Below are positions 7,344 to 33,136 of a stretch of DNA of 64,000 nucleotides, piece after piece. Under the pieces are notes generated by a model. That model worked only from the letters and a program-made list of their open reading frames with translations, did not search any database and was not told the DNA's origin. Position 1 is the stretch's first letter; each line of letters opens with the position of its first letter. Origin of the DNA: Marinifilum sp. (lineage in GTDB: Bacteria > Bacteroidota > Bacteroidia > Bacteroidales > CG2-30-32-10); assembly GCA_020718065.1 (NCBI GenBank), contig DYDE01000001.1:754-64753 (forward strand), read 5' to 3'. The position numbers and the translations under genes were made by a program.

Positions 7344-9605
7344 ATGAATAAAAAACATTTATTATTAATTTGTTTATGGCTTGTATTCGGATTTTACAAC
7401 AGCCTTTATGCTCAAGTAACATGTAAAGATATTACAAATGAAGATATTTGGAAGAGTGGAAAGTTTTTCCCTAAAACATATTCAGATGCTATTCCACTTA
7501 AAGATGGAGAACATTATTTGGTTAGCGAAGACGATGGCTTGATTATATATTCTTATAAAACCGGAACCAAATCAGGCACCTTGGTTGAAGCTGACAAACT
7601 AATACCTGAAGGACAAACCAAAAGTATTTCAATTGGCGATTTCGATTTAAATGCCGATGAAACAAAGGTTCTTTTTGCTTCTGAAACCGAATATATTTAC
7701 CGTCATTCATCAAAATCTAACTATTATGTTTGGGATATTAAGACACAAAAACTAACAGCTCTTTCAAAAGGTGGAAAACAACGTTTAGCAAGCTTTTCTC
7801 CTAATGGAAATATGGTTGGTTTTGTAAGAGATAATAATCTTTTCATCAAAGATCTTACTTCAGGCAAAGAAAGCCAGATTACAAAAGATGGGTTACAAAA
7901 CAATATAATCAATGGGACTACAGACTGGGTTTACGAAGAGGAGTTTGGTTTTACAAGAGCTTTTTTCTGGTCTCCTGATGGTTTAAAAATTGCATATTAC
8001 AAATTTGATGAAAGTAAAGTGAAACAGTTTACAATTTCTAACTACGGAAACCTTTATCCAGAACAATATCAATATAAATATCCTAAAGCTGGCGAAGATA
8101 ATTCCATTGTTAATATTTATGTTTTTAATATTTCCACAAGCGTTTCAAAAATGATGGATATTGGTTCTGAAACCAATCAGTATATTCCAAGAATTAAATG
8201 GACAAACAACAATAACCTGCTTGCAATTGAGAGACTAAATCGTTTACAAAACAAATTTGAAATTTTAATATGCAATGCAATAGACGGAAAAAATACTGTA
8301 TTAACCAGTGAAACTGACAAATCAAAATACAAAGACAATAATAAAGTTTCAAATTCAGAAACCAATAATGTCTTATATACTGAAGAGAACAAATTTTATG
8401 TTGAAATAACAGATGATCTGACATTTACTAAAGAAAATAACTTCATTATTACTAGTGAAAAAGATGGATACAACCAGATTTATTATTACGATTCAAAAGG
8501 AAAACTTATTAATCAGGTTACGAAGGGCAATTGGGATGTAACAAGTTTTCTAGGATATGATGAGAAAACAAAAACAATTTATTATATATCTTCAGAAGAA
8601 TCTCCTATAAACAGAACTTTATATTCAATTAAAATTGATGGTAAAGGTAAAAAGAAACTTTCTTCAAAAACAGGAACAAATGATGCAAAATTTAGTGCTA
8701 ATTACACCTACTTTATAAACACCTATTCTGATGCCAACACACCCCATTATGTCTCCATTAATAATGGGATAGATGGAAAAGAGATTAATGTACTTGAAAA
8801 TAACTCCAAACTAATTGAATTGCTTAAAGAATATTGTTTTGCAAAGCAAGAATTCTTTTCGTTTAAAACATCCGAGAACATTGAACTCAATGCAAGTATT
8901 ATAAAACCTGTTAATTTTGATCCAAAAAAGAAATATCCAGTTTTAATGCATGTGTATGGAGGCCCAGGCTCTCAAACTGTTCAAAACAAATGGGGTTATT
9001 ATGATTTTGTATGGTATCAAATGCTTGCTCAAAAAGGGTACATTATTGTATCCGTTGACAATAGAGGAACAGGTGCAAGAGGAGAAGCATTTAAAAAATG
9101 CACCTATCTTCAAATGGGTAAATATGAAACCATTGATCAGATAGAAGGAGCTAAATATCTTGGAACTTTAAATTATGTTGATAAAGATCGTATAGGTATC
9201 TGGGGTTGGAGTTATGGTGGTTTTATGTCAACTTTATGTATGACTAAAGGAGCAGATTATTTTAAAATGGGTATTGCTGTTGCCCCTGTTACTAACTGGA
9301 GATATTATGACAATATTTATACAGAAAGATTTATGAGAACCCCGCAGGAAAACCCATCTGGCTACGATGATAATTCACCCATTAATCATGTTGATAAACT
9401 AAAAGGTAAATATTTGTTGGTACATGGCTTATCTGATGACAATGTTCACGTTCAAAATTCAATGGATTTAATAACTGCATTGGTAAATAAAAACAAACAA
9501 TTTGAAATGCAATTTTATCCTAACAAGAATCATGGTATTTATGGTGGATACACACGACTGCATTTATATAACAGAATGACGGATTTTATCCTCCGCAATT
9601 TATAA
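7344..9605 (+). CDS. Dipeptidyl-peptidase IV (S9B prolyl oligopeptidase family), secreted
   Basis: Signal peptide. DPPIV N-terminal propeller motif DWVYEEEF. Catalytic serine in GIWGWSYGG, Asp in HGLSDDNVH, His in KNHGI. Confidence 0.9.
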   Translation: MNKKHLLLICLWLVFGFYNSLYAQVTCKDITNEDIWKSGKFFPKTYSDAIPLKDGEHYLVSEDDGLIIYSYKTGTKSGTLVEADKLIPEGQTKSISIGDFDLNADETKVLFASETEYIYRHSSKSNYYVWDIKTQKLTALSKGGKQRLASFSPNGNMVGFVRDNNLFIKDLTSGKESQITKDGLQNNIINGTTDWVYEEEFGFTRAFFWSPDGLKIAYYKFDESKVKQFTISNYGNLYPEQYQYKYPKAGEDNSIVNIYVFNISTSVSKMMDIGSETNQYIPRIKWTNNNNLLAIERLNRLQNKFEILICNAIDGKNTVLTSETDKSKYKDNNKVSNSETNNVLYTEENKFYVEITDDLTFTKENNFIITSEKDGYNQIYYYDSKGKLINQVTKGNWDVTSFLGYDEKTKTIYYISSEESPINRTLYSIKIDGKGKKKLSSKTGTNDAKFSANYTYFINTYSDANTPHYVSINNGIDGKEINVLENNSKLIELLKEYCFAKQEFFSFKTSENIELNASIIKPVNFDPKKKYPVLMHVYGGPGSQTVQNKWGYYDFVWYQMLAQKGYIIVSVDNRGTGARGEAFKKCTYLQMGKYETIDQIEGAKYLGTLNYVDKDRIGIWGWSYGGFMSTLCMTKGADYFKMGIAVAPVTNWRYYDNIYTERFMRTPQENPSGYDDNSPINHVDKLKGKYLLVHGLSDDNVHVQNSMDLITALVNKNKQFEMQFYPNKNHGIYGGYTRLHLYNRMTDFILRNL

Positions 9606-9608
9606 TAC

Positions 9609-9631
9609 AAAGGGGGTTTAGCCCCTTTTTT
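9609..9631 (+). terminator. Putative intrinsic terminator after the DPP-IV gene
   Basis: AAAGGGG-gtttag-CCCCTTT hairpin followed by further T residues, 4 bp after the stop codon. Confidence 0.6.
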
Positions 9632-9654
9632 AATGAATTTATAATTTTAATATT

Positions 9655-10260
9655 ATGGCTTCCAATTCTAAAAGAATTCTAAAACGCATCTTTAAGTATT
9701 TTATTGAAGGTTTGGTGCTTATAGCTCCAATTACCATTACAGTCTATGCAATAGTTAAGATTTTTGAAATAGTTGATGGGATATTACCATTCAAGATACC
9801 TGGTCTTGGTCTGCTTGTTATTTTGTTAATTATAACGTTAATGGGTGTTTTGGGTTCTACTATTATTGCAAAACCTTTATTTGCATATTATAACAGACTA
9901 CTTGATAAAATACCTCTAATAAAAATATTATATTCGTCAATTAAAGATCTGATGTCAGCATTTGTTGGGCAGAAGAAAAAATTCACAGAACCAGTATTGG
10001 TAAGAATGAGTAAAGACAGTGAAATTGAAAAGCTTGGGTTTCTCACACAAAAAGACTTAACAATACTTGGAGTTGATAAAGGCAAAGTAGCAGTGTATTT
10101 TCCGCATTCTTATAACTTTTCGGGTAATTTATTTATTGTGCCAATTGAAAATGTAAAACCTGTGAATGCCTCCCCTACAGAAATTATGAAATTTATCGTT
10201 TCTGGAGGAGTCACAGAGCTAGGCGAAACTAAAAAAGAAAATGAAGTTAAAACAGATTAA
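9655..10260 (+). CDS. DUF502-like inner-membrane protein
   Basis: 201 aa with two N-terminal hydrophobic helices followed by a soluble domain. Architecture and sequence feel match the DUF502 family; assignment from memory only. Confidence 0.55.
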   Translation: MASNSKRILKRIFKYFIEGLVLIAPITITVYAIVKIFEIVDGILPFKIPGLGLLVILLIITLMGVLGSTIIAKPLFAYYNRLLDKIPLIKILYSSIKDLMSAFVGQKKKFTEPVLVRMSKDSEIEKLGFLTQKDLTILGVDKGKVAVYFPHSYNFSGNLFIVPIENVKPVNASPTEIMKFIVSGGVTELGETKKENEVKTD

Positions 10261-10354
10261 TTTTTGTGGATTTGTAAATTTATTTAACTTTATCGCTTTT
10301 TAAATTATATTTAAACAATTATTAATAATCTTTAACTATCCAACATTTAAATTT

Positions 10355-11053
10355 ATGATTTGGAGATTTTTATTCATTTTAACCTTAACTACTGCTTACA
10401 TTGTGTCATTTGATAACGTTTGTATTGCCCAAACTTCATCAAAAACTATAGATTACAAACGTATTCCGCAAAAAAAAGTTAGAAAATTATTGAAACGCAT
10501 TGAACAATTTGGGATAAAGGATTTAAGTGATTTGAATGCTAAATGTTATGATTCGGATGACTCTTCAACATATTGCGTTCAAACAGATTCACACATTATT
10601 AAAGAAAATATTATTAATGTATGGAACAAAATGATGAAATTAAATTTATGTGAAGAATTTAGTGGCAGATTGGTTAGTTTAGGAATGATGTACTCAAAAA
10701 AACTGAATCAAATATTCTATAAAGACGATAAATTTGTTGGTATTGAAGAAGGACAGGTTTTTTATCTGAATCTTAAATTACTTGGAGGGATTAAAAACCT
10801 GGGTGTTGGATTGGAAGTTACAAGAATTGATAAAGATAAAAAATCAATTAAATTTTGTTATTTAAACCATGGAACCTCAGAAGGAACCCAAGAAATCAGA
10901 CTTACAGAAACAACAGATGGTTATTCAATAATTACTCAGGAAACCCGTTATAAGAGTAAATCTAAATTCAGAGACAAAAGGCTATACCCAGGATTTCATC
11001 GTAAATTTGTAAACGAACTTCACGAAAACCTCACAAAACTGATAGTTGGTTGA
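10355..11053 (+). CDS. Hypothetical secreted protein
   Basis: 232 aa with an N-terminal hydrophobic signal-like segment (FLFILTLTTAYIVSF...CIAQ). No motif recognised. Confidence 0.4.
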   Translation: MIWRFLFILTLTTAYIVSFDNVCIAQTSSKTIDYKRIPQKKVRKLLKRIEQFGIKDLSDLNAKCYDSDDSSTYCVQTDSHIIKENIINVWNKMMKLNLCEEFSGRLVSLGMMYSKKLNQIFYKDDKFVGIEEGQVFYLNLKLLGGIKNLGVGLEVTRIDKDKKSIKFCYLNHGTSEGTQEIRLTETTDGYSIITQETRYKSKSKFRDKRLYPGFHRKFVNELHENLTKLIVG

Positions 11054-11307
11054 TTACTTATTTTCAATCGTTAAATATAAAATAGCATTCTGTTTCAATG
11101 TCCACATTTTAAATTACAAATTTCCAATTTCAATATTATTGTATATAATCTGGTATCAAAAAGCCTTTATAAAGAAATTTGACTTAATATTATTTGCTAA
11201 ATTTTGATAACTTTGCAACCAAAAAAACATAATTAGGAAAATGTTTTATTCATCACTATTACCTGGTATTTTATAATCCTTATTTATCTTTCATCTAATT
11301 ATCTGTA

Positions 11308-12513
11308 TTGAAACCCATACTCGAAATACAAAATATCTCAAAAAAATTCCGCATTGGTGGAGATAGCGGAGGATACAAAACGTTAAGGGACAACTTATTT
11401 CCAAAAGACAGAAAAAAAAAGGACAAAACCGAGTTTTGGGCACTACAGGATGTTTCTTTCGATGTTTTTCCTGGTGATACCATTGGCATTATTGGCAAAA
11501 ACGGTGCAGGCAAATCTACCTTACTGAAGATCCTCAGCCGTATTACCCCTCCTACCAAAGGAAAAATTATCTGTAGGGGACGTATTGCTAGTTTACTGGA
11601 AGTAGGTACCGGTTTTCACGGAGAACTCTCGGGCAAGGAAAACATTTATCTCAATGGCTCCATATTAGGTTTAAAGAAAACAGAAATAAATAAAAAGTTT
11701 GATGAAATAGTTGACTTTTCTGGTGTTGAAAAATTTCTGGATACCCAATTAAAACATTACAGCAGTGGAATGCAACTAAGATTAGCATTTGCTGTTGCAG
11801 CACATCTTGAGCCGGAAATCCTCATTATTGATGAGGTATTGGCTGTGGGGGATGCGGAGTTTCAGAGAAAGTGTTTGGGAAAAATGGAAGAAGTTGGAAA
11901 TAGTGGAAGGACAATTATATTTGTCAGTCATAATTTGCCTCAATTACAATCTATTTGCAAGCAAGGAATACTTTTGGAACATGGCAGTATTAAATTTAAT
12001 GGTAAAACAAACAAAACTATTACTGAATATTTAAGGGCGAAAAATGCTGAAGGGGTAATAGATGTTATTAATATGCCAAAAGTGATTAAAAGTGATTTAT
12101 TTCAAATAAGCTCTTTTCGTTTTAAAAAGAATAAAGATTTTTTTGAACAAGAAAATATAGAAATGATTATTTGTTTTATAGTTACGGGAGTTATCAATGA
12201 GTTAAATATTGGTTTCTCCTTATCTGATTTGTCCAATAATTTATTAATTGAATGTAGGTCATCAGGAACCTATCCTTCATATGATGTTAAACCTGGTGAA
12301 TACGAGATAGCATTACAAATTAAACCCCAATTAAAAAATGGAGTTTATTATTTAAGTTTAGGCGCAAACTGTAGCAGTGGCAACCTTGAATACATACCAC
12401 ATGTAGCCGAAATTGAAATTCTTCCAACTCTCACGAATATTGAACTATGGAAAAACAACTCAAATGGCTTGTTAATAACTAATTCTACCTGGTCTATTAA
12501 TCAAACAAAATGA
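11308..12513 (+). CDS. ABC transporter ATP-binding protein, polysaccharide/O-antigen exporter type (Wzt/TagH-like) with C-terminal extension
   Basis: Walker A GKNGAGKSTLLK, signature YSSGMQLRLAFA, Walker B ILIIDEVLAVGD, H-loop VSHN. About 150 extra C-terminal residues, as in Wzt glycan-binding domains. Confidence 0.85.
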   Translation: MKPILEIQNISKKFRIGGDSGGYKTLRDNLFPKDRKKKDKTEFWALQDVSFDVFPGDTIGIIGKNGAGKSTLLKILSRITPPTKGKIICRGRIASLLEVGTGFHGELSGKENIYLNGSILGLKKTEINKKFDEIVDFSGVEKFLDTQLKHYSSGMQLRLAFAVAAHLEPEILIIDEVLAVGDAEFQRKCLGKMEEVGNSGRTIIFVSHNLPQLQSICKQGILLEHGSIKFNGKTNKTITEYLRAKNAEGVIDVINMPKVIKSDLFQISSFRFKKNKDFFEQENIEMIICFIVTGVINELNIGFSLSDLSNNLLIECRSSGTYPSYDVKPGEYEIALQIKPQLKNGVYYLSLGANCSSGNLEYIPHVAEIEILPTLTNIELWKNNSNGLLITNSTWSINQTK

Positions 12514-13184
12514 AACTATTAACAAAAATATTGCTGAATTTTAAAGCTTTAAGGGAATTGCTATATTTAAAAAGAAATGAAATGATTCAACGTGAGATAA
12601 AATTATCTCACGAATACAATGGTATTTATAAGGAATATGATAGTGATAATTTCTCAGGATCATCAAAAATTGGAAATTACTCTTATATTAACAATAGTCC
12701 TTTGATTGCAAATTGTGAAATAGGAAAATTTTGTTCTATCGCCCCCAATGTTATTGTGGGAATTGGAGACCATCCAATTAATTATGTGAGCACAAGCCCT
12801 ATATTTTACTCTGCTATTGCAGTATGTGGGAAATCTTTTGCCACTAAAAACCATTTTGCAGAAACAATGCCAGTAATTGTAAAAAATGATGTTTGGATAG
12901 GAGCAAATGTGTATATAAAAAATGGAGTTACAGTTGGAAACGGTGCAATCATTGCAGCAGGAGCAATAGTAGTAAAAGATGTTCCAGATTATGCTATTGT
13001 TGGTGGAGTTCCAGCTAAAATATTAAAATACAGATTTGAAAAAAATCAAATTGATAAATTACTTGAAATAAAATGGTGGGACTGGCCAGAAGATAAACTT
13101 ATACTAGCCCAGCCTCACTTTGTTAATGAAGATATAGATGAATTTATAGAATGGAGTATGAAAACAATGGATACACCTAGCTAA
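12510..13184 (+). CDS. Hexapeptide-repeat (left-handed beta-helix) acetyltransferase
   Basis: Hexapeptide repeats IGANVYIKNGVTVGNGAIIAAGAIVVKDVPDYAIVGGVPAK. 4-bp overlap (ATGA) with the upstream ABC ATPase gene. Confidence 0.8.
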   Translation: MKLLTKILLNFKALRELLYLKRNEMIQREIKLSHEYNGIYKEYDSDNFSGSSKIGNYSYINNSPLIANCEIGKFCSIAPNVIVGIGDHPINYVSTSPIFYSAIAVCGKSFATKNHFAETMPVIVKNDVWIGANVYIKNGVTVGNGAIIAAGAIVVKDVPDYAIVGGVPAKILKYRFEKNQIDKLLEIKWWDWPEDKLILAQPHFVNEDIDEFIEWSMKTMDTPS

Positions 13185-13219
13185 AAAACTTAAATTTCTG
13201 TTACAAAACTGTTTTTTTA

Positions 13220-14149
13220 ATGATAAAAAGAATTCACAAATCAATACTTAGACGAGCAAAAAATATTAATACTATATTTTTAAAACTAAATTGGGTTTTT
13301 AAGAAATGGTTATCTTTTGAGCATAAAGAAATTGTTAGGGAAGTTTCAGTTATTATTGTTGGTCGCAATGATAACTATGGTGGTGATTTTAGTAAACGGC
13401 TGCAAGTTACTTTTGATTGGAATCTTAAGCATTTTCCAAATTCTGAAATTATTTATATAGAATGGAATCAAATTAAAAATAGAAAAAGTGATTGTGAATG
13501 GATAAGTAAACGATATTCCAATGCCAGATGTTATATTGTTTCTGAAGAAATCCACAAGTGTAATTCATCAATTCCAGACAAAATGCCTGTAATGGAATAT
13601 TTTGCAAAAAATATTGGAATCAGAAAATCAAAAAACGATTGGTTGCTAATGATTAACGCTGATGTTTTCCTTGGAAATGATTTTATTGGCAATATGCATA
13701 AGCTTAATAATAACACAGTTTATGCTTCTCATTATATTGGAATAAAATGGAATGGGGAAGAAATAAATGACAAGATTATTAAAAATAAAAAAATCAGAGT
13801 TGTCAACTTTGCAGCTCCTTTTTCTTTGGGCTCAGTGGTTGGAAATTTAATTTTAACGCATAAAAAAAACTGGCTCTTGGCTACTGGATATGATGAAAGA
13901 CTTACTAATGTCAGGGCAGGTGTTGACACAAATGGGCTAAATCAATTACTTAACTTAGGTTTAAGAAAACAAGTTATTGGGCATCATTACCATTTAGACC
14001 ATACCGAATCTATTATTCATGGAAGCAATGTAACACATGGAAATCATGCATTTAATAATATACCTTACAAAAACCCTGATAATTGGGGATTTTTAGATTA
14101 TAAAGAAATTGAAATTGGCGAAAGAATATGGCGGTTAGAAAAAATTTAG
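13220..14149 (+). CDS. Putative glycosyltransferase (GT-A-like), weak assignment
   Basis: VSVIIVGRNDNYGG near the N-terminus and MINADVF (DxD-like) are reminiscent of the GT-A fold. Embedded in a glycan operon. Confidence 0.4.
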   Translation: MIKRIHKSILRRAKNINTIFLKLNWVFKKWLSFEHKEIVREVSVIIVGRNDNYGGDFSKRLQVTFDWNLKHFPNSEIIYIEWNQIKNRKSDCEWISKRYSNARCYIVSEEIHKCNSSIPDKMPVMEYFAKNIGIRKSKNDWLLMINADVFLGNDFIGNMHKLNNNTVYASHYIGIKWNGEEINDKIIKNKKIRVVNFAAPFSLGSVVGNLILTHKKNWLLATGYDERLTNVRAGVDTNGLNQLLNLGLRKQVIGHHYHLDHTESIIHGSNVTHGNHAFNNIPYKNPDNWGFLDYKEIEIGERIWRLEKI

Positions 14150-14937
14150 TTTTAGGAGGAAGCGGAACTATTGGCTCTGCTTTATGCAATCATTTGATTG
14201 CAATTGGTGAAGAGGTTATAAACCTCGATATTAAAGAAGGTTTCGATCTTCGTATAATGGATATTGACAATTATATGAATGTTGATTATGTTTGGTTTCT
14301 TGCATGGGATGTTGGAGGAGCAAAATATCTTTACAATACAGAACATCAAATAGAAATACTTAAAAATAATACTGGTATTTGTCGTCATGTTTTTCATTTT
14401 ATTGAAAAATATAAAATTCCATTTATATTTGCATCTAGTCAACTAGCAAATACGGATAACAGTTATGGGATAACTAAGCTTCTTGGTGAATTATGGACAC
14501 AACAATTAGGTGGAAAAACTGTTCGTTTCTGGAATGTTTATGGGTGGGAAAATCCTTCTGAAAAATCACATGTAATTCCAGATTTGATTATAAAAGCACT
14601 AACCGAAGAAAAAATAACCCTTATCACCAATGGACTTGAAGAAAGACAATTTATTTATATTGAAGATTGTGTTAGAAATCTGATGAAAATAAGAGATAGT
14701 AAATTAAATCTTTTTCACCTGACAAATGGTAATTGGATGCATATTAAAGATATTGCAAATAATATTGCCAACAAACTTAATGTCCCTTTAATTGTGGGTA
14801 ATGATCAAGGATACTCCTATAAAGTTGATCCTGATATTACTTATAAAATATTTGATTTTAAAGTTTCAATTGAGACTGGTATTGATATTTTAATTAAAAA
14901 AGCAAAAGACTACTTAGCTTCAAAAAATGGTTGTTAA
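14128..14937 (+). CDS. NAD-dependent epimerase/dehydratase (short-chain dehydrogenase fold)
   Basis: Rossmann motif LGGSGTIGSAL and catalytic YxxxK (SYGITK). Overlaps the upstream gene by 22 bp. Confidence 0.75.
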   Translation: MAVRKNLVLGGSGTIGSALCNHLIAIGEEVINLDIKEGFDLRIMDIDNYMNVDYVWFLAWDVGGAKYLYNTEHQIEILKNNTGICRHVFHFIEKYKIPFIFASSQLANTDNSYGITKLLGELWTQQLGGKTVRFWNVYGWENPSEKSHVIPDLIIKALTEEKITLITNGLEERQFIYIEDCVRNLMKIRDSKLNLFHLTNGNWMHIKDIANNIANKLNVPLIVGNDQGYSYKVDPDITYKIFDFKVSIETGIDILIKKAKDYLASKNGC

Positions 14938-15562
14938 ATTTATTAATTATTTACGTTTTAAACGATGGTATTTTCTTGGCAGGTTTAAAATAAGAAAAAA
15001 AATCAAAAGAGCTGCTAAAAAAGGAATTATTAAAGTATTACTTGGAAGTGCTGATACCAATTATGAAAATTGGATATCTACTGATTTGCCTCATTTTAAT
15101 ATTACCAAAGCTTCAGATTGGAATTTTTTTTTCAACAAAGTTAAGATTAATAATCTTTTAGCCGAGCATGTATTAGAACATCTCATTAAATCGGATGTTG
15201 ATATTGTAATCAGATTAGCTTATCAATATTTATCTAAGGGAGGTTGTTTTAGAATTGCTGTACCTGATGCTTGGCATCCCAATCCTGAATATGTGAAAAG
15301 AGAATCAGATACCTCAAATTACTATCCACCTCCACATAATCATAAAAGTTTTTGGAACATAAAATCGCTTTCAGATCTTTTGATTTCAGCAGGGTTTACA
15401 GTTGAATATCTAGAATATTGTAATGCAAAAAGAGAAATAATACCTTCAGGATTTGATTTTAATAATGGACCAATAAATAGAAGTATATCAAAAGGATTTA
15501 AATGTGAAATGGATAATTATTCCTCTTTGATAATTGATGCAAAAAAAATAAATATAACCTAA
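14927..15562 (+). CDS. Putative SAM-dependent methyltransferase (type 11/23-like)
   Basis: LAEHVLEHL and GGCFRIAVPD resemble the post-motif regions of class I methyltransferases. No clean GxGxG motif seen. Overlaps the upstream gene by 11 bp. Confidence 0.45.
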   Translation: MVVKFINYLRFKRWYFLGRFKIRKKIKRAAKKGIIKVLLGSADTNYENWISTDLPHFNITKASDWNFFFNKVKINNLLAEHVLEHLIKSDVDIVIRLAYQYLSKGGCFRIAVPDAWHPNPEYVKRESDTSNYYPPPHNHKSFWNIKSLSDLLISAGFTVEYLEYCNAKREIIPSGFDFNNGPINRSISKGFKCEMDNYSSLIIDAKKINIT

Positions 15563-15592
15563 GTGCTGGCTAATAAGTTTATATAATAATAA

Positions 15593-15623
15593 AAAGCCTA
15601 CCTAACAAATCAGGTGAGGCTTT
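15593..15623 (+). terminator. Weak hairpin downstream of the glycan operon
   Basis: AAAGCCT-ACCT ... AGGT-G-AGGCTTT stem with a one-nucleotide bulge, 30 bp after the stop. The T tract is short, so terminator function is uncertain. Confidence 0.35.
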
Positions 15624-15820
15624 CTGATCGATACAATTACATTGTTAATAGATTTATGGTACTCCTTTCAATTTCAGTTCTCATCATAACAATTATTCAT
15701 GCCTGGTATTTCACTACTAATCATGAATTAATATTTACAATCTATTCTTAATTTCACATTCTAACAAATTGCCTTACAGGTTATTTCCATTAACAAATAT
15801 AAAATCAAGGCAATTTTTCT

Positions 15821-16240
15821 TAAATCGGGTAGGTTTTTACCTTAAATCGGAGTGATTTGATGTCAAGTCAGGTTGATTTGATGTCAAATCGGGTTGGTTT
15901 TACCTTAAATCGGAGTGATTTTACCTAAAGTCAGGTTGATTTGATGTCAAATAGGGTTGGTTTGATGTCAAATCGGGTTGATTTTACCCTAAATCGGAGT
16001 GATTTTACCTAAAGTCAGGGTGATTTAAGGTAAAATCGGGTTGGTTTTACCTTAAATCGGATTGATTTGATGTAAAGTCAGGGTGATTTGATATCAAATC
16101 GGGTTGGAATGACATCAAATCAAGTTGGTTTGACATCAAATCGAGTTGGTTTGATATAAAGTCAGGTTGATTTGATGTCAAATCGGGTTGATTTTATCAA
16201 AAGTCAAGATGATTTATTCTCATATTGGGTTGGAATGGAA
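15821..16240. repeat. Tandem array 1: 20 units of exactly 21 bp (consensus about TCAAATCGGGTTGATTTGATG), 63-bp super-period
   Basis: I counted the units one by one: 15821, 15842, 15863 ... 16220, with no indels. Many units contain inverted arms TCAAATC-N5-GATTTGA. Junctions give GATTTGA-TG-TCAAATC. Confidence 0.9.
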
Positions 16241-16402
16241 AAATTTTACCCAAATCAACTTTTAATAATTCTTGGGACTTTGTAGTCAAATATTTCTTGC
16301 CACAAATCCACTAATTCAAAAACTTGAAAACTGGGAAACCAATAAATAATAAACCTCAAATATTGTTTATAATATTAAAAAGTCAAAATAATTAATTTTT
16401 AT

Positions 16403-16438
16403 AGATACAATTAAATAATTTGTATCTTTAGCTACTGA
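16403..16438. promoter_or_regulatory. Imperfect palindrome about 90 bp upstream of the kinase start (candidate operator or RNA hairpin)
   Basis: AGATACA-attaaataatt-TGTATCT, 7-bp perfect arms. Extendable to AGATACAATT / AATT(T)GTATCT with one bulge. Confidence 0.25.
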
Positions 16439-16527
16439 ATTATGCTATTGTTTCAATATTATACTTAAACAATAATCTATTTTAGAACAACATTTATAAT
16501 CTTAAGACCAACTTAAAATTAAACATT

Positions 16528-18726
16528 ATGGCCGAAGAAGACAAAACCCAATTGTATGGTGACAATTTAAATAACAAAACCGGAATTTACAACACTTCCG
16601 GCAACAATAAAACAGAAGTTTATTCCACGCAGGAAAACAAAAGCCTAAAAACATCGCAGGGCATTAGCGTAGGTGATAAAATAAGTCTCAAAGAAAAAGA
16701 ATACACTGTAAAAAAAATAATATCTGAAGGAACAGGTGAAGCAAATGTTTATCAGATTGACGATAATTCAGGTAATAAACTTGCACTAAAGTTATATTAT
16801 GAATTTAAATCCGAAACAGAAGAACCCAATGGTATTGCTCTCGAAAGAATTCAGAAACTAAACGATCCGGATATACTAAGATTAATTGATTTTGGTATTG
16901 GTACTGATAAGTATAATAGCAAAAATTGTTTTGAGATTTCAGATTATGCCGTAGGAGGCAATATACTTGAAGTTGCTGATTTTAAAAAAAAATATTCGCC
17001 GAAGTTTGTTGAAGAGAATGTTATTCCACAAATATATTTGGCTATTACCAAACTCCATGAATATAAAATATATCATTGCGATTTGAAACCAGGCAACATT
17101 CTTTACAAAGATCAGGAACAAACCGATATTATTATAGGAGACTATGGATCAGCAAAAGCATATGATTTGAAATCGGAAAAAGGTCTGCGAAAATCTACAA
17201 CAATTAAAGGTACTGAGTTCTACTTACCACCCGAACAGGCAAGAGGTATTGTCTCGGAAAAGAATGATTATTATTCATTTGGAATGGTTTTGCTTCATCT
17301 GATTTATCCTGAATCTCTCACATCTGACAGTATCTGTAGAGAAATAGATAAAGACAAATTCGAACAAATCGTTGAAAGACAATACAATCTTAAACCGGTG
17401 ATTGATTTTAATCCCAGAATGAAGCGATTAAATGTTCTAATTGAAGGTCTTACGCTGGTTAATCATATTAATCGTTGGGGGGCTGAAGAAATAGAAAAAT
17501 GGTTAAAAGGGGAAAATATACAGGTTTCTTATCGAACAAAAGGTGCTTCAGATGTAAAACCTTTAATAATTGGACCTGCAGAAATTTCAAATGCTGAAGA
17601 ATTTATTTCTTACATAGAATCGAAACAGACCTGGTTTCAGGATCTTTTTGAGGATCCTGAAGTATTTAAATATATCAGAGACTGGCTTGATAATTATATC
17701 GGAATACCCGACCGCAAAAGATTTGAGAAAGTTGTTAGCATTTATAAGTTGTCTGGAAAGCTTATTTTACAAGTAGCAATAACTTTATTCCTTCTCCCAC
17801 AAAGACCATTGAAAATTGATGAGATGGAGTTTGACTTTTTTAACACCAATAATTTATCAAAAACAATTTCTGATTTTATAGCAAAAATCGATAGTATTTA
17901 TAAGTTTACTACTATTGAAATTCTTACAAAGTATTTTTTTCAACTTGAATACTCCCTTAAAGCAATGCATTATCAGAATCCGGAAAACCAAACCATCCTC
18001 GCTCTTCTGAGTAAATTATACAACCCTCTTTCCTCTAAAACTAAACTTACAGAGGAATTCGACTTTAAAACCTTCTTACCCGCTCATATTATTCCAGCAA
18101 AAGGTCAACATAATTATGAATACATGATATGGGTTTTCAATGCATTTAATAAAGTAAGACCCTATCCTGATAATAACAATAAGCCTATTGAGCTTGCTGA
18201 AGATCTCACCGTATTCTACCTGAAAAATAAAAAACTCTATGATGATAAATATCATACTTTTGAAAGAAATGCATTACTGAAAAGCTTTAATTTGAATGGT
18301 TTTGCAAACACCTCATTATCTGAACTGGTTGGCAATACGCTTTCTAAATATGCAGAATCCGTAGTAAATATCGATTATATTTCTTTTGACAAGATATGTA
18401 ATGTTCATTATTCCATTATCAGTGTGCTCAACAGCTATCTTAAAGTTTTTGGTATTGATGAAATTATTTCTTTTAATGAAAAAAAAGGATTTATTTATGC
18501 AGAACAAAATAAAGGGTCTGCAAATAAAGCAGCAAAAGCATTTATTGAATACATCAAAAACGAACACAGAGAAGCAAGCTTCTCGCCAGAATCTATAGAA
18601 AGCATCAAAGCAAACTTCATTAAAGAACATAAGAAATTCAATCTTATGAATAATGTTGTAACTGTTGTTGCAACAATTCTTATTGTTATTATGTTAATTG
18701 CGATAATTCTAAGACTCGCAAGCTAG
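16528..18726 (+). CDS. Tail-anchored Ser/Thr protein kinase with a ~400-aa uncharacterised C-terminal region
   Basis: Hanks-type motifs: glycine loop SEGTGEANVY, lysine in LALKLYY, catalytic loop YHCDLKPGNILY, GDYGSAKA (DFG equivalent), GTEFYLPPEQ (APE equivalent). Single C-terminal TM helix VVTVVATILIVIMLIAIILRLAS. Confidence 0.85.
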   Translation: MAEEDKTQLYGDNLNNKTGIYNTSGNNKTEVYSTQENKSLKTSQGISVGDKISLKEKEYTVKKIISEGTGEANVYQIDDNSGNKLALKLYYEFKSETEEPNGIALERIQKLNDPDILRLIDFGIGTDKYNSKNCFEISDYAVGGNILEVADFKKKYSPKFVEENVIPQIYLAITKLHEYKIYHCDLKPGNILYKDQEQTDIIIGDYGSAKAYDLKSEKGLRKSTTIKGTEFYLPPEQARGIVSEKNDYYSFGMVLLHLIYPESLTSDSICREIDKDKFEQIVERQYNLKPVIDFNPRMKRLNVLIEGLTLVNHINRWGAEEIEKWLKGENIQVSYRTKGASDVKPLIIGPAEISNAEEFISYIESKQTWFQDLFEDPEVFKYIRDWLDNYIGIPDRKRFEKVVSIYKLSGKLILQVAITLFLLPQRPLKIDEMEFDFFNTNNLSKTISDFIAKIDSIYKFTTIEILTKYFFQLEYSLKAMHYQNPENQTILALLSKLYNPLSSKTKLTEEFDFKTFLPAHIIPAKGQHNYEYMIWVFNAFNKVRPYPDNNNKPIELAEDLTVFYLKNKKLYDDKYHTFERNALLKSFNLNGFANTSLSELVGNTLSKYAESVVNIDYISFDKICNVHYSIISVLNSYLKVFGIDEIISFNEKKGFIYAEQNKGSANKAAKAFIEYIKNEHREASFSPESIESIKANFIKEHKKFNLMNNVVTVVATILIVIMLIAIILRLAS

Positions 18727-18757
18727 CTTTTTTTAATACTATCAAAAGATTTAATTT

Positions 18758-20293
18758 ATGAGTGGCCCCAAAGTTATAGTATATAAAATGAACGCTTTCG
18801 ATGGCAGACTGAACGAATTTATGCGAAAACAAGCTCAGTTGGCACAAATGTGCATCGAAATGCAAGAAGCAGAAATAAGTGATGAAACTTTTAACATCCA
18901 TTTCAATTGCAAAGAAAGCTATGATAAAATAAAGACTGAAATTCAAAAAGCTTTAACAAGCATGGTTTTTGATTACAAAGGAACTATTGATAAAAAAACA
19001 TACGATTCGATTGACAATCAAATAAAGGAGAGAACTCAAAAATTAAATGAGGTTATCAATAAAAGCGAAACAATACTTTCTGAATACAATAGCAAGCAGA
19101 AAGACTATAAGTCTTTCTTAGATTATAATTTATTTGTACAGAATGCGCAGAATTCTCTTGAAAAATTCAAAACAGATACTAATGAAAACCTAAATACTAA
19201 TTTTGCAAAACAAAATGCTGTTTTGGTAGAAGAAGCAAAAAAGAAATACGGAACCATCGTTTATGAAAAAGCAAGCAAAGAATTTACCTGGGGTTTCGAC
19301 AAAATCGTTGAGAAAGAAAAAAATATGGTTGTCAATCACCTGATTGAAAAAGAAAACCTCATCAGAGACATAAGGCAGGAATTAATGGATAAAGTAATTG
19401 ATACTGATACTAAACAAAAAATTACCGCTACCATTAAAAAGAAAGTTGTAAAACCTTCAGAGGAAATCAATACTATTACCTTAAAAATTGAAATACTGAT
19501 AAACAATTGTAACGAAAAAACTATCAGCAATAATTACAGTAAACAATTCAACAAGCTCAAACAAAGCGAAAGTATGAACGATTTGTTTTTTTATCAGGAA
19601 CTACACGACAGGATTTTGGAAAATGAAACAAGTCGAAGGCATAAGCTAATTGTGAATGATATTATTGCTCATCTTAATTCTTCCAGTATTGATATTTCAC
19701 TGAATCAGGATAAAAAATTAATGCTTCAGAAAGCCATAAACTTATTGAACAATGCTAAGATCAGCGAAAAAGAAGCAAACTGTCTGAAAAAAGAAACTGA
19801 ATTGTTTTTTATAAGAAACAGAAAAGCAGCAGAAGATCGAGAAATAAAAAAGAAAGAACAACTTTTTGTAAAAAGCCAGATCATTATGAATTTCGAAAAT
19901 CTCGGTTATGAGGTGATGGATGACCTGAAAGTAATAGATTTCGAAAAAGAAGATGATTTTTATTTGAAAGCCCCCGGACAAGAAAACTTACTTAATATAA
20001 AATTCAAAGAAGATGGTTCTTTCAGATATGTTTTTGAAATACCTGAAAAAAAAGAAGAACTAAGTGTTGATGAACAAAAATTGAAGCTGCACGAAATGCA
20101 AACAACCTGTGATGATTTTGTTGCAATACTCAATGATCTTAAACAAATGGGGGTAAACGTAGAAGTTAAAAGTGACAAGCCAATTGAATTAAATTCGATG
20201 ATCACCATCCCTGAAGTAATAAGTACAAAATTAAAGACCCAAAAATCACAAACCCAACGCAAACAACAATTAAAAAAACTATACTTAGAATAA
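18758..20293 (+). CDS. Lys/Glu-rich predicted coiled-coil protein, unknown function
   Basis: 511 aa. Long heptad-like charged stretches. No enzymatic motif recognised. 31 bp after the kinase gene and 1 bp before the AAA+ gene. Confidence 0.6.
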   Translation: MSGPKVIVYKMNAFDGRLNEFMRKQAQLAQMCIEMQEAEISDETFNIHFNCKESYDKIKTEIQKALTSMVFDYKGTIDKKTYDSIDNQIKERTQKLNEVINKSETILSEYNSKQKDYKSFLDYNLFVQNAQNSLEKFKTDTNENLNTNFAKQNAVLVEEAKKKYGTIVYEKASKEFTWGFDKIVEKEKNMVVNHLIEKENLIRDIRQELMDKVIDTDTKQKITATIKKKVVKPSEEINTITLKIEILINNCNEKTISNNYSKQFNKLKQSESMNDLFFYQELHDRILENETSRRHKLIVNDIIAHLNSSSIDISLNQDKKLMLQKAINLLNNAKISEKEANCLKKETELFFIRNRKAAEDREIKKKEQLFVKSQIIMNFENLGYEVMDDLKVIDFEKEDDFYLKAPGQENLLNIKFKEDGSFRYVFEIPEKKEELSVDEQKLKLHEMQTTCDDFVAILNDLKQMGVNVEVKSDKPIELNSMITIPEVISTKLKTQKSQTQRKQQLKKLYLE

Positions 20294-20294
20294 T

Positions 20295-22151
20295 ATGGAA
20301 ACAAAAAACATTTTTCCTGCATGGTTACAGGAATTTAAGCGTTTTCAAGCCTTAAAATCGCAGCTTTTTCTCTTTGGCAACATTTACGATTGCTATTACT
20401 TTCCTGTCAACTATAAAGAAGCAAAAGACGAGTCGGAATTGAAATATGCAAAATTTAATGATATTAAAGAATTATTACAAAAATACCTCCTTTTACAGGA
20501 TTTCGAAGTAGTGAGTTATTTTGATGTAATTGATGGGATCAGTTTAACTTCTTCTGACCCCAAAATTAATATTGATAATGTTTGTACTTCATTACAATTA
20601 AAAAACAGAGATGCAGAAGCCTATCTAAAGAATGCAAAAGCTAAAAAACTCGACGATGCAGTAGCATTTTATCGGGAACTAATGAGCAATACCAACAAAC
20701 TTACGGCATGTATCATTAATTTTGCTTCACGTTTTACTTCCAATCCCAATGCATTGGAAGAAACAATAAAACCTACCTACCTAAAAATGGTAAAAGCTGC
20801 ACAGGAATCTTATGCTTTTTCAAATAAAGAAGGAATGCGTAATATTATAGTATTTATTTGTGACAAATTGAATGATGTACCAGCATGGATGTTAATAGAA
20901 AATCCTTTAACAAAAGAAATAAACATTTCGAAACCCGGTAGAGAAGAACGAGAACGCTTCTTTTTTCAACGCAATGCATTGTTTTATTCAGAAGGGCAGG
21001 AACCCAATCTAAAAGAAATTGGAAAAATTTTTCCAGACCTCACCGAAGGCTTCCCTAACAGGGAGCTGGAAAACCTGATAACTATTTCGAAGCAAGAAAA
21101 GATTCATATGAATAAGATGAAAGAAATTATCGAACTTTTCAAATATGGATTGAGAGAAAACCCTTGGGAAAAGCTTGATTATGCTAAGGTTGAAGAGGCA
21201 GCTGATGAACTTCGCAAAAGAGTATTGGGACAGGAAAAAGCAATTGAAAAAGCTGTTGAAATTGTTCGTCGTTCGAAACTGGGCCTGGATTCAATTGACA
21301 AGACCCGTCCTTCCAATAAACCAAAAGGTGTATTATTCTTTGCAGGTCCGACAGGAACTGGTAAAACAGAGTTGGCCAAATCGATTGCTGAGTTGATTTT
21401 CAGTGATGAAGATGCAATGATACGATTTGACATGAGTGAATATAATGACAGTAATTCGGATGTAAAACTGATTGGGAGCCCTCCAGGATATGTAGGTTAC
21501 GAAGCCGGTGGACAACTTACTGATGCAATCCGAAAAAAACCCTTTAGTATTTTATTATTTGATGAAATAGAAAAAGCCCATCCAAAAGTATTCGATAAAT
21601 TCCTGCAAATATTGGACGATGGACGGCTCACAGACGGGAAAGGCGAAACAGTTTATTTTTCTCAATCACTTATAGTATTCACCTCAAACCTGGGAATGTT
21701 CAAAGATGATGGTTCCGGAAAAAGGACACAATATGTACTATACAGTGATGATTATAAAACCATTGAAAAGAAAATTAAAGACGAAATAAAAACATTTTTC
21801 GGAAGCACCTTGAATCGCCCTGAAATCTTTAATCGTTTTGGAGACAACTTTGTAGTTTTCGATTATATCAGACCCGATATTGCTGCAAAAATAATTGTTA
21901 AAAACCTGAATGTTATCAAGACAAATCTTAAAAAAATCAAAAACATTGATTTTGCATATACCAATGAATTTATTGCTGAATTTTTCAAACAATGTGCAGA
22001 TGACAACCTTGAAATGGGAGGTAGAGGAATTGTAAACAGAATTGAAACCCATATTAAAAATGGTCTTACCAACTTTATGTTTGAGAGTCGTAAGGTAGAA
22101 AATTGTACTATTTCTGTAAAAGTTGTTAATTCAAAAATAGTATTTGAATGA
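20295..22151 (+). CDS. ClpB/ClpV D2-type AAA+ ATPase (AAA_2) with a divergent ~300-aa N-terminal half
   Basis: VLGQEKAIEKAVEIVRRSKLGL, Walker A FAGPTGTGKTELAK, LIGSPPGYVGYEAGGQLT, Walker B ILLFDEIEKAHP, FLQILDDGRLTDGKGETV, sensor-1 VFTSNLG. The N-terminal half lacks a P-loop (SQLFLFGNIYDCYY in the expected place). Confidence 0.9.
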   Translation: METKNIFPAWLQEFKRFQALKSQLFLFGNIYDCYYFPVNYKEAKDESELKYAKFNDIKELLQKYLLLQDFEVVSYFDVIDGISLTSSDPKINIDNVCTSLQLKNRDAEAYLKNAKAKKLDDAVAFYRELMSNTNKLTACIINFASRFTSNPNALEETIKPTYLKMVKAAQESYAFSNKEGMRNIIVFICDKLNDVPAWMLIENPLTKEINISKPGREERERFFFQRNALFYSEGQEPNLKEIGKIFPDLTEGFPNRELENLITISKQEKIHMNKMKEIIELFKYGLRENPWEKLDYAKVEEAADELRKRVLGQEKAIEKAVEIVRRSKLGLDSIDKTRPSNKPKGVLFFAGPTGTGKTELAKSIAELIFSDEDAMIRFDMSEYNDSNSDVKLIGSPPGYVGYEAGGQLTDAIRKKPFSILLFDEIEKAHPKVFDKFLQILDDGRLTDGKGETVYFSQSLIVFTSNLGMFKDDGSGKRTQYVLYSDDYKTIEKKIKDEIKTFFGSTLNRPEIFNRFGDNFVVFDYIRPDIAAKIIVKNLNVIKTNLKKIKNIDFAYTNEFIAEFFKQCADDNLEMGGRGIVNRIETHIKNGLTNFMFESRKVENCTISVKVVNSKIVFE

Positions 22152-22762
22152 TCTTTCGGTTAAATAAAATACAATATCCGGTTTACAATCTTGGTCCAGG
22201 TAAACGATTAGGTATTTGGCTTCAGGGGTGCAGCATACATTGCAAAAATTGCATCAACAAATCCACATGGTCAAATAAACAAGGAAAACAAATGCATATT
22301 ATTGATGTATATAATATAATTGAAATGATTTGTAAAAATTATGACGGCATCACCATCACTGGTGGCGAACCATTCGATCAATATCCCCAATTGATGGCAT
22401 TTGCATACCTGATAAAAAGAAAAACAAAATTAAATATCATTTGTTTTAGCGGATACTATCTTGAAGAACTGGTACAGAAATTTCCCGACAAAGCATTTTT
22501 TAATTGTTTTAACTATATAATAGATGGCAGGTATGAAAAAGAACTTGTTTCTTCAAATTCGTTAAAAGGATCAGAAAACCAAAGTGTTTACAAATTCAAA
22601 CACAATAAAGCAGTAAAAACTAACATTAACAATACAAAGAAAACCTGGTCATTAAACTTCGAAAATGAAACCATTTATATGGCAGGAATACCTGCACAAA
22701 AAGAAATGGAGACTGTTGCCAACAAAATGAAATTGAATGGTATTAATTTAAAATTAGTTTAA
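22148..22762 (+). CDS. NrdG-like small radical-SAM activating enzyme
   Basis: GPGKRLGIWLQGCSIHCKNCINKSTW carries the CxxxCxxC cluster motif and closely resembles my recollection of the E. coli NrdG N-terminal cluster region (...GC..C.GC.NK.TW). SAM-binding ITITGGEPF. 204 aa. ATGA overlap with the AAA+ gene. Confidence 0.85.
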   Translation: MIFRLNKIQYPVYNLGPGKRLGIWLQGCSIHCKNCINKSTWSNKQGKQMHIIDVYNIIEMICKNYDGITITGGEPFDQYPQLMAFAYLIKRKTKLNIICFSGYYLEELVQKFPDKAFFNCFNYIIDGRYEKELVSSNSLKGSENQSVYKFKHNKAVKTNINNTKKTWSLNFENETIYMAGIPAQKEMETVANKMKLNGINLKLV

Positions 22763-22768
22763 TAAAGT

Positions 22769-23395
22769 ATGTTTCAAATCATTTGTCCGACTTGTTCCAA
22801 TAAAAATCTATTCGAAACAACTGAACAAAAACCTGTTGAGTGTTCTTTTTGTTTTACTTCTTTCACAGATTCAATAAAAATAGAGGAAATTGCTGAAGAT
22901 AAGAAGTTGATTGGGTTAAGACTTATATACCAACAAAACTCAGAATCAGTATTGATTAATAATTGCAATTGCATCCTTGGACGCGAAAATATAGGTTCGC
23001 AATTACTTTCCAACATCAGGATAAATGGCAATCAGGTGATAAGTCGTAAACATTGTTCCATTAATTTAATTGATGGCAAATATTATATAAAAGACGAGGG
23101 TTCTCTTAATGGCACTTTTTATGGAGTGAGCAAAATAGATTGTTCCAAAGAAAACCATATTATAGAAAATAATAGTTTGATCTTCCTCGGAAAAGAAGCA
23201 TTTCTGGTCCAATTCCAATATGAAGATACCAAAAAAGAGTCAGTTGATCAGCAATCAACTGATACACCTAAAGAAACTCCAAAACCAAAAAAGTACAGAT
23301 GCAAAGAAGGATGTGGTTTTGAATCTGAATCTTATATGGACATATGCCCAAAGTGCATGTCGAACAATAGCATGGTTGCAATATATGAAAATTAA
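22769..23395 (+). CDS. Zinc-ribbon / FHA domain / zinc-ribbon protein
   Basis: N-terminal CPTC...CSFC. FHA core ILGRENIG...ISRKHCSINLIDGKYYIKDEGSLNGTFYG. C-terminal CKEGC...CPKC. Confidence 0.85.
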   Translation: MFQIICPTCSNKNLFETTEQKPVECSFCFTSFTDSIKIEEIAEDKKLIGLRLIYQQNSESVLINNCNCILGRENIGSQLLSNIRINGNQVISRKHCSINLIDGKYYIKDEGSLNGTFYGVSKIDCSKENHIIENNSLIFLGKEAFLVQFQYEDTKKESVDQQSTDTPKETPKPKKYRCKEGCGFESESYMDICPKCMSNNSMVAIYEN

Positions 23396-23406
23396 AATCC
23401 AATCAT

Positions 23407-24123
23407 ATGGTCTTTAATATTTGTGGGTTTACACATAAAGGTACTGGCATATACACTTCTAACGAAGACAATATGTTGATAAACGATACTCAGTTAAATG
23501 AAGGTGAGTTTTTACTATTCAACCAGCCCTCATGTGTATGTTTTATTTCAGATGGTGTTGGTGGCAGTAAAGCCGGAGACTTTGCTTCTGCATTTGTTTT
23601 GTCAAAAATAAAAGAACTAACAACTGAACAATTAAATGACTTAAACAATATACTATATAAAGTAAATGATAATTTGCTTGAAGTTTCGTTGAATGATGAA
23701 AACAAAAGAGGTTGTGCCTGCACCTTATCTGGTTTAATAGCTTTCGATGATTTCTTTGATTTTACTCATATCGGAGATTCTGAAATTTGGCTCTTACGCA
23801 ATGATATGTTTATAAAGATATCAAAAGATGAAGTTGCAGATGAAGATAATGTTCTAAGTCCGATAACCAATTATTTCGGAGGAACAAAAAACAACCTTAA
23901 AATAAATACAGCATGGGAAAAGCCAGAATTATTTGCAAATGATGTTTTTCTTCTTTGTTCTGATGGATTGTTCAAATCATTAAATGTGAAATTGGTAAAA
24001 CCTATCCTCTCTTCAACAAAGAGTTTGCAGGAAAAAGTGCTCAAACTTAAAGAAAACTGCCTGACACTTGGCTCTGATGATAATGTAACGGCTATTATCA
24101 TTGAAATAATAAGTAATGAATAA
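23407..24123 (+). CDS. PP2C-family (PPM) Ser/Thr phosphatase
   Basis: Metal-binding motifs FISDGVGGSKAG, HIGDSEIW, LLCSDGLF, GSDDNVTAIIIE. 238 aa. Confidence 0.85.
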   Translation: MVFNICGFTHKGTGIYTSNEDNMLINDTQLNEGEFLLFNQPSCVCFISDGVGGSKAGDFASAFVLSKIKELTTEQLNDLNNILYKVNDNLLEVSLNDENKRGCACTLSGLIAFDDFFDFTHIGDSEIWLLRNDMFIKISKDEVADEDNVLSPITNYFGGTKNNLKINTAWEKPELFANDVFLLCSDGLFKSLNVKLVKPILSSTKSLQEKVLKLKENCLTLGSDDNVTAIIIEIISNE

Positions 24124-24127
24124 CCAG

Positions 24128-25663: not shown

Positions 25664-25697
25664 ATTCTCTTTGTTTATACATTTATAATATAAAATA

Positions 25698-27221: not shown

Positions 27222-27312
27222 AAAACACCTAAAGTGAACAAAAGTTTGATGTTACTAAACTTAAATTGTATTAATATTTTAATTATCCAGAAACAGAATT
27301 AAAACAATATCT

Positions 27313-32674: not shown

Positions 32675-33136
32675 CTCAAGTACCCTTGCCTCAATGCTTG
32701 AGACAATTGCCTCGAATCTCGGGACAAGGATTTTTTTCCTTGAGGCAAGGTTACCCGACCTTGAGGCAATTGCCCCGAACCTCGGGACAAGGATTTTTTT
32801 CCTTGAGGCAAGGTTACCCGACCTTGAGGCAATTGCCCCGAATCTCGGGACAAGGATTTTTTTCCTTGAGGCAAGGGTACCCGACCTTGAGGCTATTGCC
32901 CCGAACCTCGGGACAAGGATTTTTTTCCTTGAGGCAAGGGTACCCGACCTTGAGGCAATTGCCCCGAACCTTGGGACAAGGATTTTTTTCTCTGAGGCAA
33001 GGGTACTTTCCTTTCAGGCAAGTGTACCTGACTTTGGGGCAAGTGCCCCAAACTTTGAGGCAATTGCCCCAAGCTTCGAGGCAAGGATTCCTGACCTTGA
33101 GATAAAGAAATATATCTTCGAGTCAAGAATATCTAT
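32675..33136. repeat. Tandem array 2: about 22 units of exactly 21 bp, 63-bp super-period (CCTTGAGGCAAGGTTACCCGA / CCTTGAGGCAATTGCCCCGAA / CCTCGGGACAAGGATTTTTTT)
   Basis: Super-units start at 32738, 32801, 32864, 32927 and 32990 (exact 63-bp steps), degenerating toward 33136. Mini-palindromes CCTTG-agg-CAAGG and CCCGA-acc-TCGGG. Confidence 0.9.

Follow-up and report, generated by a model that had tools for sequence, protein, structure and literature searches.

A non-coding array of in-register 21-bp units upstream of a Ser/Thr kinase operon in Marinifilum sp., and a loose class of 21-bp intergenic arrays in Bacteroidota

The window analysed here is a stretch of 64,000 nucleotides of contig DYDE01000001.1 from Marinifilum sp. 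(assembly GCA_020718065.1), and the element with which this report is concerned, hereafter Array 1, is a 420-bp tandem array at positions 15821-16240, made up of about 20 in-register units of 21 bp with the consensus TCAAATCGGGTTGATTTGATG; here and below, repeat features are given without strand. Array 1 lies in an intergenic gap of 965 bp (15563-16527) between a polysaccharide-synthesis operon and a nine-gene operon headed by a Ser/Thr protein kinase, the two operons being co-oriented, and its end is separated by 287 bp from the kinase start codon, an ATG at 16528. The only open reading frames (ORFs) of the gap are 44-45 aa long, stop codons occur in all frames, and TAA recurs in the frame of the unit, in one unit type; Array 1 is non-coding. 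Directly 5' of it lies a perfect 10-bp inverted repeat (AAATTGCCTT / AAGGCAATTT, 15766-15816, with the arms at 15766-15775 and 15807-15816), whose arms are separated by a 31-nt spacer and which is followed by TTTTCT; judged from its sequence, it may be a putative hairpin or the terminator of the upstream operon. The inverted repeat, the gap devoid of a convincing ORF and a distance of about 290 bp between array and kinase had all been described in a first-pass annotation of the window, and were all found as described.

The periodicity of Array 1 is well defined. Tandem Repeats Finder (TRF) reports a period of 21 bp with 16.7 copies, 73% matches and 0% indels (15844-16194), together with overlapping periods of 63 and 84 bp, and the 20 units keep their register when laid out from 15821; indeed, the self-identity of the array is 0.69 at a lag of 21 bp, compared with 0.34 and 0.35 at lags of 20 and 22 bp, respectively. 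In none of the three tandem arrays of the window (see below) does the self-match reveal a signal at lags of 7 or 14 bp, and 21 bp is therefore the fundamental period; a substructure of three heptamers per unit is ruled out by the same silence. The 22-mer representing the unit, allowing up to three mismatches, is matched 7 times (0.00 in 100 shuffles), and a half-site pattern extending over three units 10 times (0.00 in shuffles): Array 1 is real and far beyond chance. The strict phasing without indels put forward in the first-pass annotation thus stands as far as the register is concerned, with the reservation that unit 1 carries a compensated 1-nt shift.

Within the unit, the most conserved positions are the half-sites AARTC and GRTTT, which alternate at steps of 10 and 11 bp and are therefore all exposed on one face of the helix, in agreement with the one-sided geometry originally proposed. 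The palindromic character of the individual units is weaker than was first thought: no unit reads perfectly TCAAATC-N5-GATTTGA, a reading previously ascribed to many of them, the exact 12-base core CAAATC-N5-GATTTG is likewise never found, and seven units lie within one mismatch of that core. The cleanest palindromes span the junctions between units, where inverted arms had already been noticed, and occur at 15875, 16085 (for example GATTTGATATCAAATC) and 16169; their central dinucleotide, first given as TG, is more generally YR (GATTTGA-YR-TCAAATC). Four unit types (A, B, C and D) can be recognized, following each other in the order A'BC ABC D ABC ABC D D D C A C' D'. The supposed three-unit super-period of 63 bp is present (identity 0.725 at this lag) as part of a mixture of three-, four- and seven-unit blocks, in which a lag of 84 bp gives the better identity (0.75) and one seven-unit block is repeated once. 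Towards the 3' end the units degenerate, and at this edge a partial inverted unit (AAATTTTACCCAAATCAAC, 16241-16259) pairs with the last, degenerate ones.

Both edges of the array are reproduced exactly in two other assemblies. The short-read contig L001 (run ERR628383) is identical to window positions 7521-15894 and stops inside Array 1, while L134, from a different assembly (GCA_017973835.1), starts at 16155 and is identical over the final 86 bp of Array 1 and over all of the spacer that follows, its kinase being identical to that of the window at 728 of 732 residues. Moreover, Array 1 contains no exact repeat of 41 bp or longer, so that ordinary reads can tile it uniquely and a collapse is unlikely; the collapse artefact named beforehand as a possible refutation is, accordingly, not borne out, although the total of 20 units is taken from one assembly. 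The ends of contigs L001, L134 and L126, all from other assemblies, fall inside Arrays 1 and 3 (15894, 16155 and 56801), which implies that such arrays fragment short-read assemblies and are under-represented in metagenome-assembled genomes.

The kinase (16528-18726, + strand) is the first gene of a conserved operon (16528-28836), in which it is followed by an uncharacterized protein of 511 aa, by two proteins resembling ClpB (AAA+) and NrdG (radical-SAM), respectively, by an FHA/Zn-ribbon protein and a PP2C phosphatase, and by three paralogues of about 510 aa that are likewise uncharacterized; a search with PADLOC returned generic kinase and AAA+ matches only, and the operon was rejected as a known defence system. 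The order of the genes is kept in L082 (82% kinase identity), in L130-L133 (66%) and in a further relative at 63% (P0007 contig), and in all of these Array 1 is absent upstream of the operon. What is found in its place differs from one relative to the other: L082 has a gap of 1.48 kb, in which an unrelated 21/42-bp array of its own (CTTAATAAACAAAGAAAATAA) lies some 1.2 kb upstream of the kinase; the gap of L130, 695 bp long, is free of tandem repeats; and in the 63% relative no more than 100 bp precede the kinase. When the upstream regions of the window and L082 are aligned, conservation is confined to some 140 bp adjoining the start codon, where it forms a distal block (…TAATTTTTA…TTGTATCTTTAGCTACT…, 16390-16442, + strand) and a proximal block directly before the ATG (ATCTTAAGACCAACTTAAAATTAAAC, 16499-16527, + strand); Array 1 is upstream of the former, and outside both of these conserved control blocks. 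On sequence grounds, a functional tie between Array 1 and the kinase operon, such as the control of operon expression envisaged in the first-pass annotation, is not supported by the evidence found, and the array is probably not a conserved switch, since close relatives in which the same operon is present lack it.

Searches outside the locus lead to a similar picture. No other copy of the unit, nor of its palindromic core, was found in the 64 kb; the specific (degenerate) 22-mer gave 0 hits in the JGI metagenomes, the source collection of the 82% relative L082, and no match to Array 1 came from a blastn comparison with plasmids and phages, so that the k-mer search suggested at the outset yielded no further copy. 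A looser pattern of half-sites at 21-bp spacing recovered 41 metagenome loci, with GC contents between 0.21 and 0.66 and with telomere-like or coding repeats among them, and 0 hits in viral contigs; these 41 loci are heterogeneous and were discarded as homologues of Array 1, being read as chance members of a general pool of 21-bp arrays. A different repeat family (CTTTGAGTAACTTTGTGT) is dispersed in the 82% relative, once as a 133-bp tandem repeat (L082, about 4000-4200; L127, 13485-13861), and long, repeat-filled intergenic regions thus seem to be characteristic of the lineage.

Array 1 is not the only array of its kind in the neighbourhood. A self-match scan of the whole window detected three tandem arrays, all with a base period of 21 bp. 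Array 2 (32697-33137) consists of units of the type CTTGAGGCAAGG… / CTCGGGACAAGGATTTTTTTC, organized in a 63-bp higher-order repeat with 95% identity; its GC content is 0.50, against a mean of 0.31 for the window, it occupies the intergenic region between the divergent genes of a GH20 hexosaminidase and of a Fib_succ_major protein, and it creates by itself two ORFs, each about 150 aa long. Upstream of dnaE lies Array 3 (56691-56879), which is built of units AAGCCTYGGGAAGTCTCATGT (AAGCCTYGGGAAG…) and has a higher-order repeat of 84 bp. When the three intergenic regions were compared all against all, no significant similarity was seen in the flanks, and the units of the three arrays are unrelated to each other. 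Array 3 is absent upstream of dnaE in L127 and L129 (81-82% dnaE identity), one of which keeps the same upstream gene, and only about 60 bp next to the ATG are conserved between the dnaE upstream regions; the absence of Arrays 1 and 3 from relatives indicates that the arrays are young and turn over quickly. Immediately after Array 3 (56879-56935) there are purine-rich repeats of 16/24 bp (GGTATAGAGGAATAAAGG), and L082 has a comparable purine-rich motif on its opposite strand (4560-4600). A Y1-transposase gene (IS200/RAYT-like, PF01797) is present in L129 (82% dnaE identity) at 122-556, and no link between it and the arrays was found.

The distribution of such arrays was surveyed in Bacteroidota loci retrieved around dnaE and the kinase, 1.63 Mb in all, by considering non-coding arrays of at least 3.5 copies. 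Eight arrays with a base period of 21 bp, and one of 42 bp, were classified by script, whereas periods of 10, 11, 12, 14, 16, 17, 40 and 117 bp were met one to three times each, most of the arrays with these other periods being very short; a ninth 21-bp array (L071, 8872-9053), misclassified because of a spurious antisense ORF, was recognized by eye. In this sample of about 1.6 Mb, 21 bp is the commonest base period of non-coding arrays, and the arrays with this period are concentrated in a few genomes. The occurrence of 21-bp arrays is patchy: three are found in the window, two each in L020 and L071, one each in L082, L006 and L027, and none in about seventy other loci, while L096, a metagenome contig encoding a type-9 secretion protein, carries two different ones in 13.5 kb. 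Each of the other intergenic arrays of 21 (or 42) bp has a sequence of its own (L020, 3041-3291 and 13752-13960; L071, 8872-9053 and 22705-22949; L096, 1311-1604 and 9542-9772; L006, 8732-8836). Palindromic units like those of Array 1 are seen in the L006 array and in the second array of L071, and a T-Y-R-G-G core (TCGGG, TCAGG, TTGGG) is common to several members. Array 1 is thus a member of a loose class of 21-bp intergenic arrays that occurs patchily in other Bacteroidota, and of which no description was found in the searchable literature.

On balance, we favour the view that Array 1 is a young, species-specific, non-coding minisatellite, situated outside the control region that is conserved in the kinase operon. 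According to this proposal, a 21-bp unit with partial dyad symmetry would have been amplified in register, one, three, four or seven units being added at a time, most likely via slipped-strand mispairing or unequal exchange; such a history is suggested by the recurrence of ABC and ABCD blocks and by the degeneration of the 3' units. The result would be a bent, dyad-rich block of 420 bp upstream of the promoter, in which about 40 alternating half-sites and phased T/A tracts lie on one face of the helix, whose length could change and which a symmetric DNA-binding protein could coat; any effect of Array 1, including one on transcription, would then probably be architectural, or due to protein loading, at the DNA level. 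The same level is indicated for the class as a whole, the feature common to the arrays being a period, which is a characteristic of the DNA double helix. Of the options listed in the first-pass annotation, a recombination- or expansion-prone element fits best, in view of the higher-order blocks, the decay of the 3' end and the absence from relatives. Array 1 shares with the variable-number tandem repeats (VNTRs) and minisatellites of the kind used in multiple-locus VNTR analysis (MLVA) its non-coding nature, its restriction to one locus, the higher-order blocks, the decay at the edge, the absence in related species and the tendency to break short-read assemblies; it differs in that ordinary VNTRs have no preferred unit length, while the three arrays of the window all have units of exactly 21 bp, a length also found in most non-coding arrays of the Bacteroidota loci sampled.

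This last difference is also one of the points that weigh against a minisatellite as the whole explanation. Neutral slippage alone leaves unexplained both the exact 21 bp in arrays of unrelated sequence and their clustering in few genomes, which points to a constraint or a factor acting on them. Moreover, variation of the copy number between strains was not observed for Array 1, the other assemblies breaking inside it. Convergent genes flank none of the 11 arrays that were inspected, which hints at a link with promoter regions. Finally, some features of Array 1 recall a transcript: the one-sided changes in the stems of the unit hairpins are compatible with G-U pairing in 16 of 16 cases, on the + strand only, and the fold of this strand is better than that of the other (-183 kcal/mol, z = -11.2 against shuffles, compared with -134 kcal/mol, z = -8.5), which together mildly favour a + strand RNA, and there are three terminator-like hairpins, each formed by two units and followed by a T-rich tail, where shuffles give 0.5.

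The last features are those on which one alternative is founded, namely that Array 1 is transcribed from the + strand into an RNA of about 20 short hairpins (stems of 6-7 bp, G-rich 5-nt loops GGGUU, GGAGU or AGGUU), acting as a protein sponge or as a multi-hairpin terminator or insulator between the operons. We consider this improbable, and the highly structured non-coding RNA anticipated in the first-pass annotation finds little support here. The folding of Array 1 beats shuffles on both strands, because any chain of inverted arms folds in this way; the wobble-compatible changes represent few independent events, since they are common to duplicated units. No clear covariation is seen: 88.6% of the positions of the unit hairpin are paired over the 20-unit alignment, against 86.5% in shuffles, and three pairs show double changes, a number reached in 2 of 500 shuffles, the units being related by duplication. 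Rfam gave no match at the gathering score over the whole window, and an E-value search only sub-threshold, generic hairpin hits to eukaryotic microRNA precursors. No Bacteroidota-type promoter TAnnTTTG faces Array 1 or lies inside it, the units containing only a weak look-alike (TTGATTTG). A CsrA-like GGA sponge was also considered and set aside, GGA occurring in the loops of only 4 of the 20 unit hairpins. As for the other members of the class, Array 2 folds equally on both strands and Array 3 gives no fold signal, and Array 1 itself is not conserved, being missing at the orthologous position in L082 and L130-L133. A somewhat better, albeit still low, chance may be granted to the idea that Array 1 is a multi-site operator or titration platform, on which a dimeric regulator would occupy either the near-palindromic units of 19 bp or the junction palindromes of 16 bp and set the transcription of the kinase operon; candidates would be a symmetric helix-turn-helix dimer, or a factor of the AraC/hybrid two-component system (HTCS) or LytTR type with 21-bp spacing, binding cooperatively along one face. 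The conservation of AARTC and GRTTT on one helix face, the position of Array 1 upstream of the promoter region and the lack of arrays between convergent genes are all in line with such a role. In Bacteroides, moreover, the operators of HTCS/AraC regulators consist of direct half-sites at a spacing of 21 bp (Ravcheev et al. 2013, PMC3878776), and HTCS/AraC-type footprints are about 21-22 bp apart (PMC13292587), so that centre-to-centre spacing, helix face and phylum are all shared with Array 1; by analogy, spacing of two turns would appear to be a native grammar of Bacteroidota regulators, and operators so spaced could seed in-register slippage. These operators, however, are two direct half-sites accompanied by a polysaccharide utilization locus (PUL) and its regulator, whereas Array 1 comprises 20 dyad units with neither regulator nor PUL adjacent, and twenty tandem copies are far above what is known for operators. 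An operator would also have to be reconciled with the absence of Array 1 before the same operon in the relatives at 82%, 66% and 63%, with its position outside the conserved control blocks, with the lack of any perfectly palindromic unit and of a single-copy site with the same palindrome elsewhere in the window, and with the fact that the pattern of conserved and variable positions rests on only about four ancestral unit types. Nor was a gene for a transcription factor found in Pfam scans of the 64-kb window, which covered all ORFs of at least 100 aa except those nested in longer genes or formed by Array 2, and which were also negative for transposase, Rep/ParA/ParB and cas genes.

The closest published case to Array 1 is BrickBuilt of Porphyromonas gingivalis (Klein et al. 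2015, PMC4596501), an intergenic, spacer-less minisatellite with a 23-nt unit and up to 22.8 copies, whose 19 loci have a leader and a tail in common and carry IS5-like terminal inverted repeats. The resemblance extends from the unit length of about two helical turns (23 nt compared with 21 bp) and similar copy numbers, up to about 23, to the imperfect units with conserved and variable positions and to the distance of 50-600 nt from the neighbouring genes. That a BrickBuilt-like repeat exists in a Bacteroidales species, and that an inverted repeat lies locally 5' of Array 1, could suggest that Array 1 is a minisatellite inside a non-autonomous mobile element, such as a MITE (miniature inverted-repeat transposable element) of the BrickBuilt kind, or a cluster of repetitive extragenic palindromes (REPs) of the bacterial interspersed mosaic element (BIME) kind; we regard this as very improbable. 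BrickBuilt is one family of units with shared ends at 19 loci, while each array of the window has its own unit, and neither a leader nor a tail nor terminal inverted repeats are common to the three; the 10-bp inverted repeat is wholly on one side of Array 1 instead of flanking it, no transposase is nearby, the unit has no second copy in 64 kb, and no homologous array or DNA match was found in metagenomes, plasmids and phages. The REPs and BIMEs of enterobacteria are similar to Array 1 in being intergenic chains of imperfect palindromes in alternating orientation. REPs, however, are present in hundreds of near-identical dispersed copies, and the comparison was abandoned for want of dispersal, as within the 64 kb the unit of Array 1 is confined to a single locus. 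Least credible of all is the idea that Array 1 results from faulty assembly, or that it is a coding repeat of seven-codon units, decayed or unusual: it is true that short-read assemblies break at Array 1 and that 21 is a multiple of 3, but both edges are exactly reproduced in other assemblies, the longest exact repeat falls short of 41 bp, all frames contain stops, with TAA recurring in one unit type, and the neighbouring genes read normally in the standard code.

Other well-known repeat systems were compared as well. A CRISPR array was rejected, the units of Array 1 being contiguous, with no spacers, and no cas genes having been found in the Pfam scans of the window. Plasmid iterons, such as those of R6K and RK2, and the sopC site of F, with 12 repeats of 43 bp each containing an inverted repeat, offer a further parallel, in that direct repeats are phased at about two helical turns, an inverted repeat is present in each unit, as in sopC, and the one-face geometry suits cooperative loading; the differences are the chromosomal housekeeping context of Array 1, the lack of a rep or par gene among those found, the presence of three arrays with different units close to each other, and a copy number above that of typical iterons. 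The 21-bp arrays occur several to a genome, in a patchy subset of Bacteroidota and always in gaps presumed to hold a promoter. It is conceivable, although we consider it unlikely, that a dedicated protein measuring two helical turns generates the 21-bp arrays or loads onto them, in which case they would be chromosomal elements of a new class, serving protein loading or DNA architecture, or else an RNA platform based on the T-Y-R-G-G core.

As to the genomic context, the window is a piece of ordinary Bacteroidota chromosome, containing dnaB, secA, lptD, metH and dnaE as well as proteins with type-9 secretion tails. The nearest dnaE sequences in species-level genomes belong to uncultured Bacteroidales and are 64% identical; an exact look-up of several proteins of the window returned no record, and a search of the window for tRNA and tmRNA genes found none. 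In an otherwise empty gap of 1.06 kb, two small overlapping ORFs of 89 and 65 aa lie on the - strand at 38163-38626, an arrangement that looks like that of a candidate toxin-antitoxin pair.

Taken alone, Array 1 is a non-conserved minisatellite, and its case is a caution against reading it as the regulator of the kinase operon that follows it. Since such arrays break short-read assemblies at predictable places, they could serve as strain markers. Of wider interest is the strict 21-bp unit, which is found in three arrays of unrelated sequence in the window and recurs in most non-coding arrays of the sampled Bacteroidota loci, concentrated in a few genomes; should this pattern hold genome-wide, it would imply either a lineage-specific mutational process or selection for two-turn phasing, for instance through the seeding of arrays from operators spaced by 21 bp.

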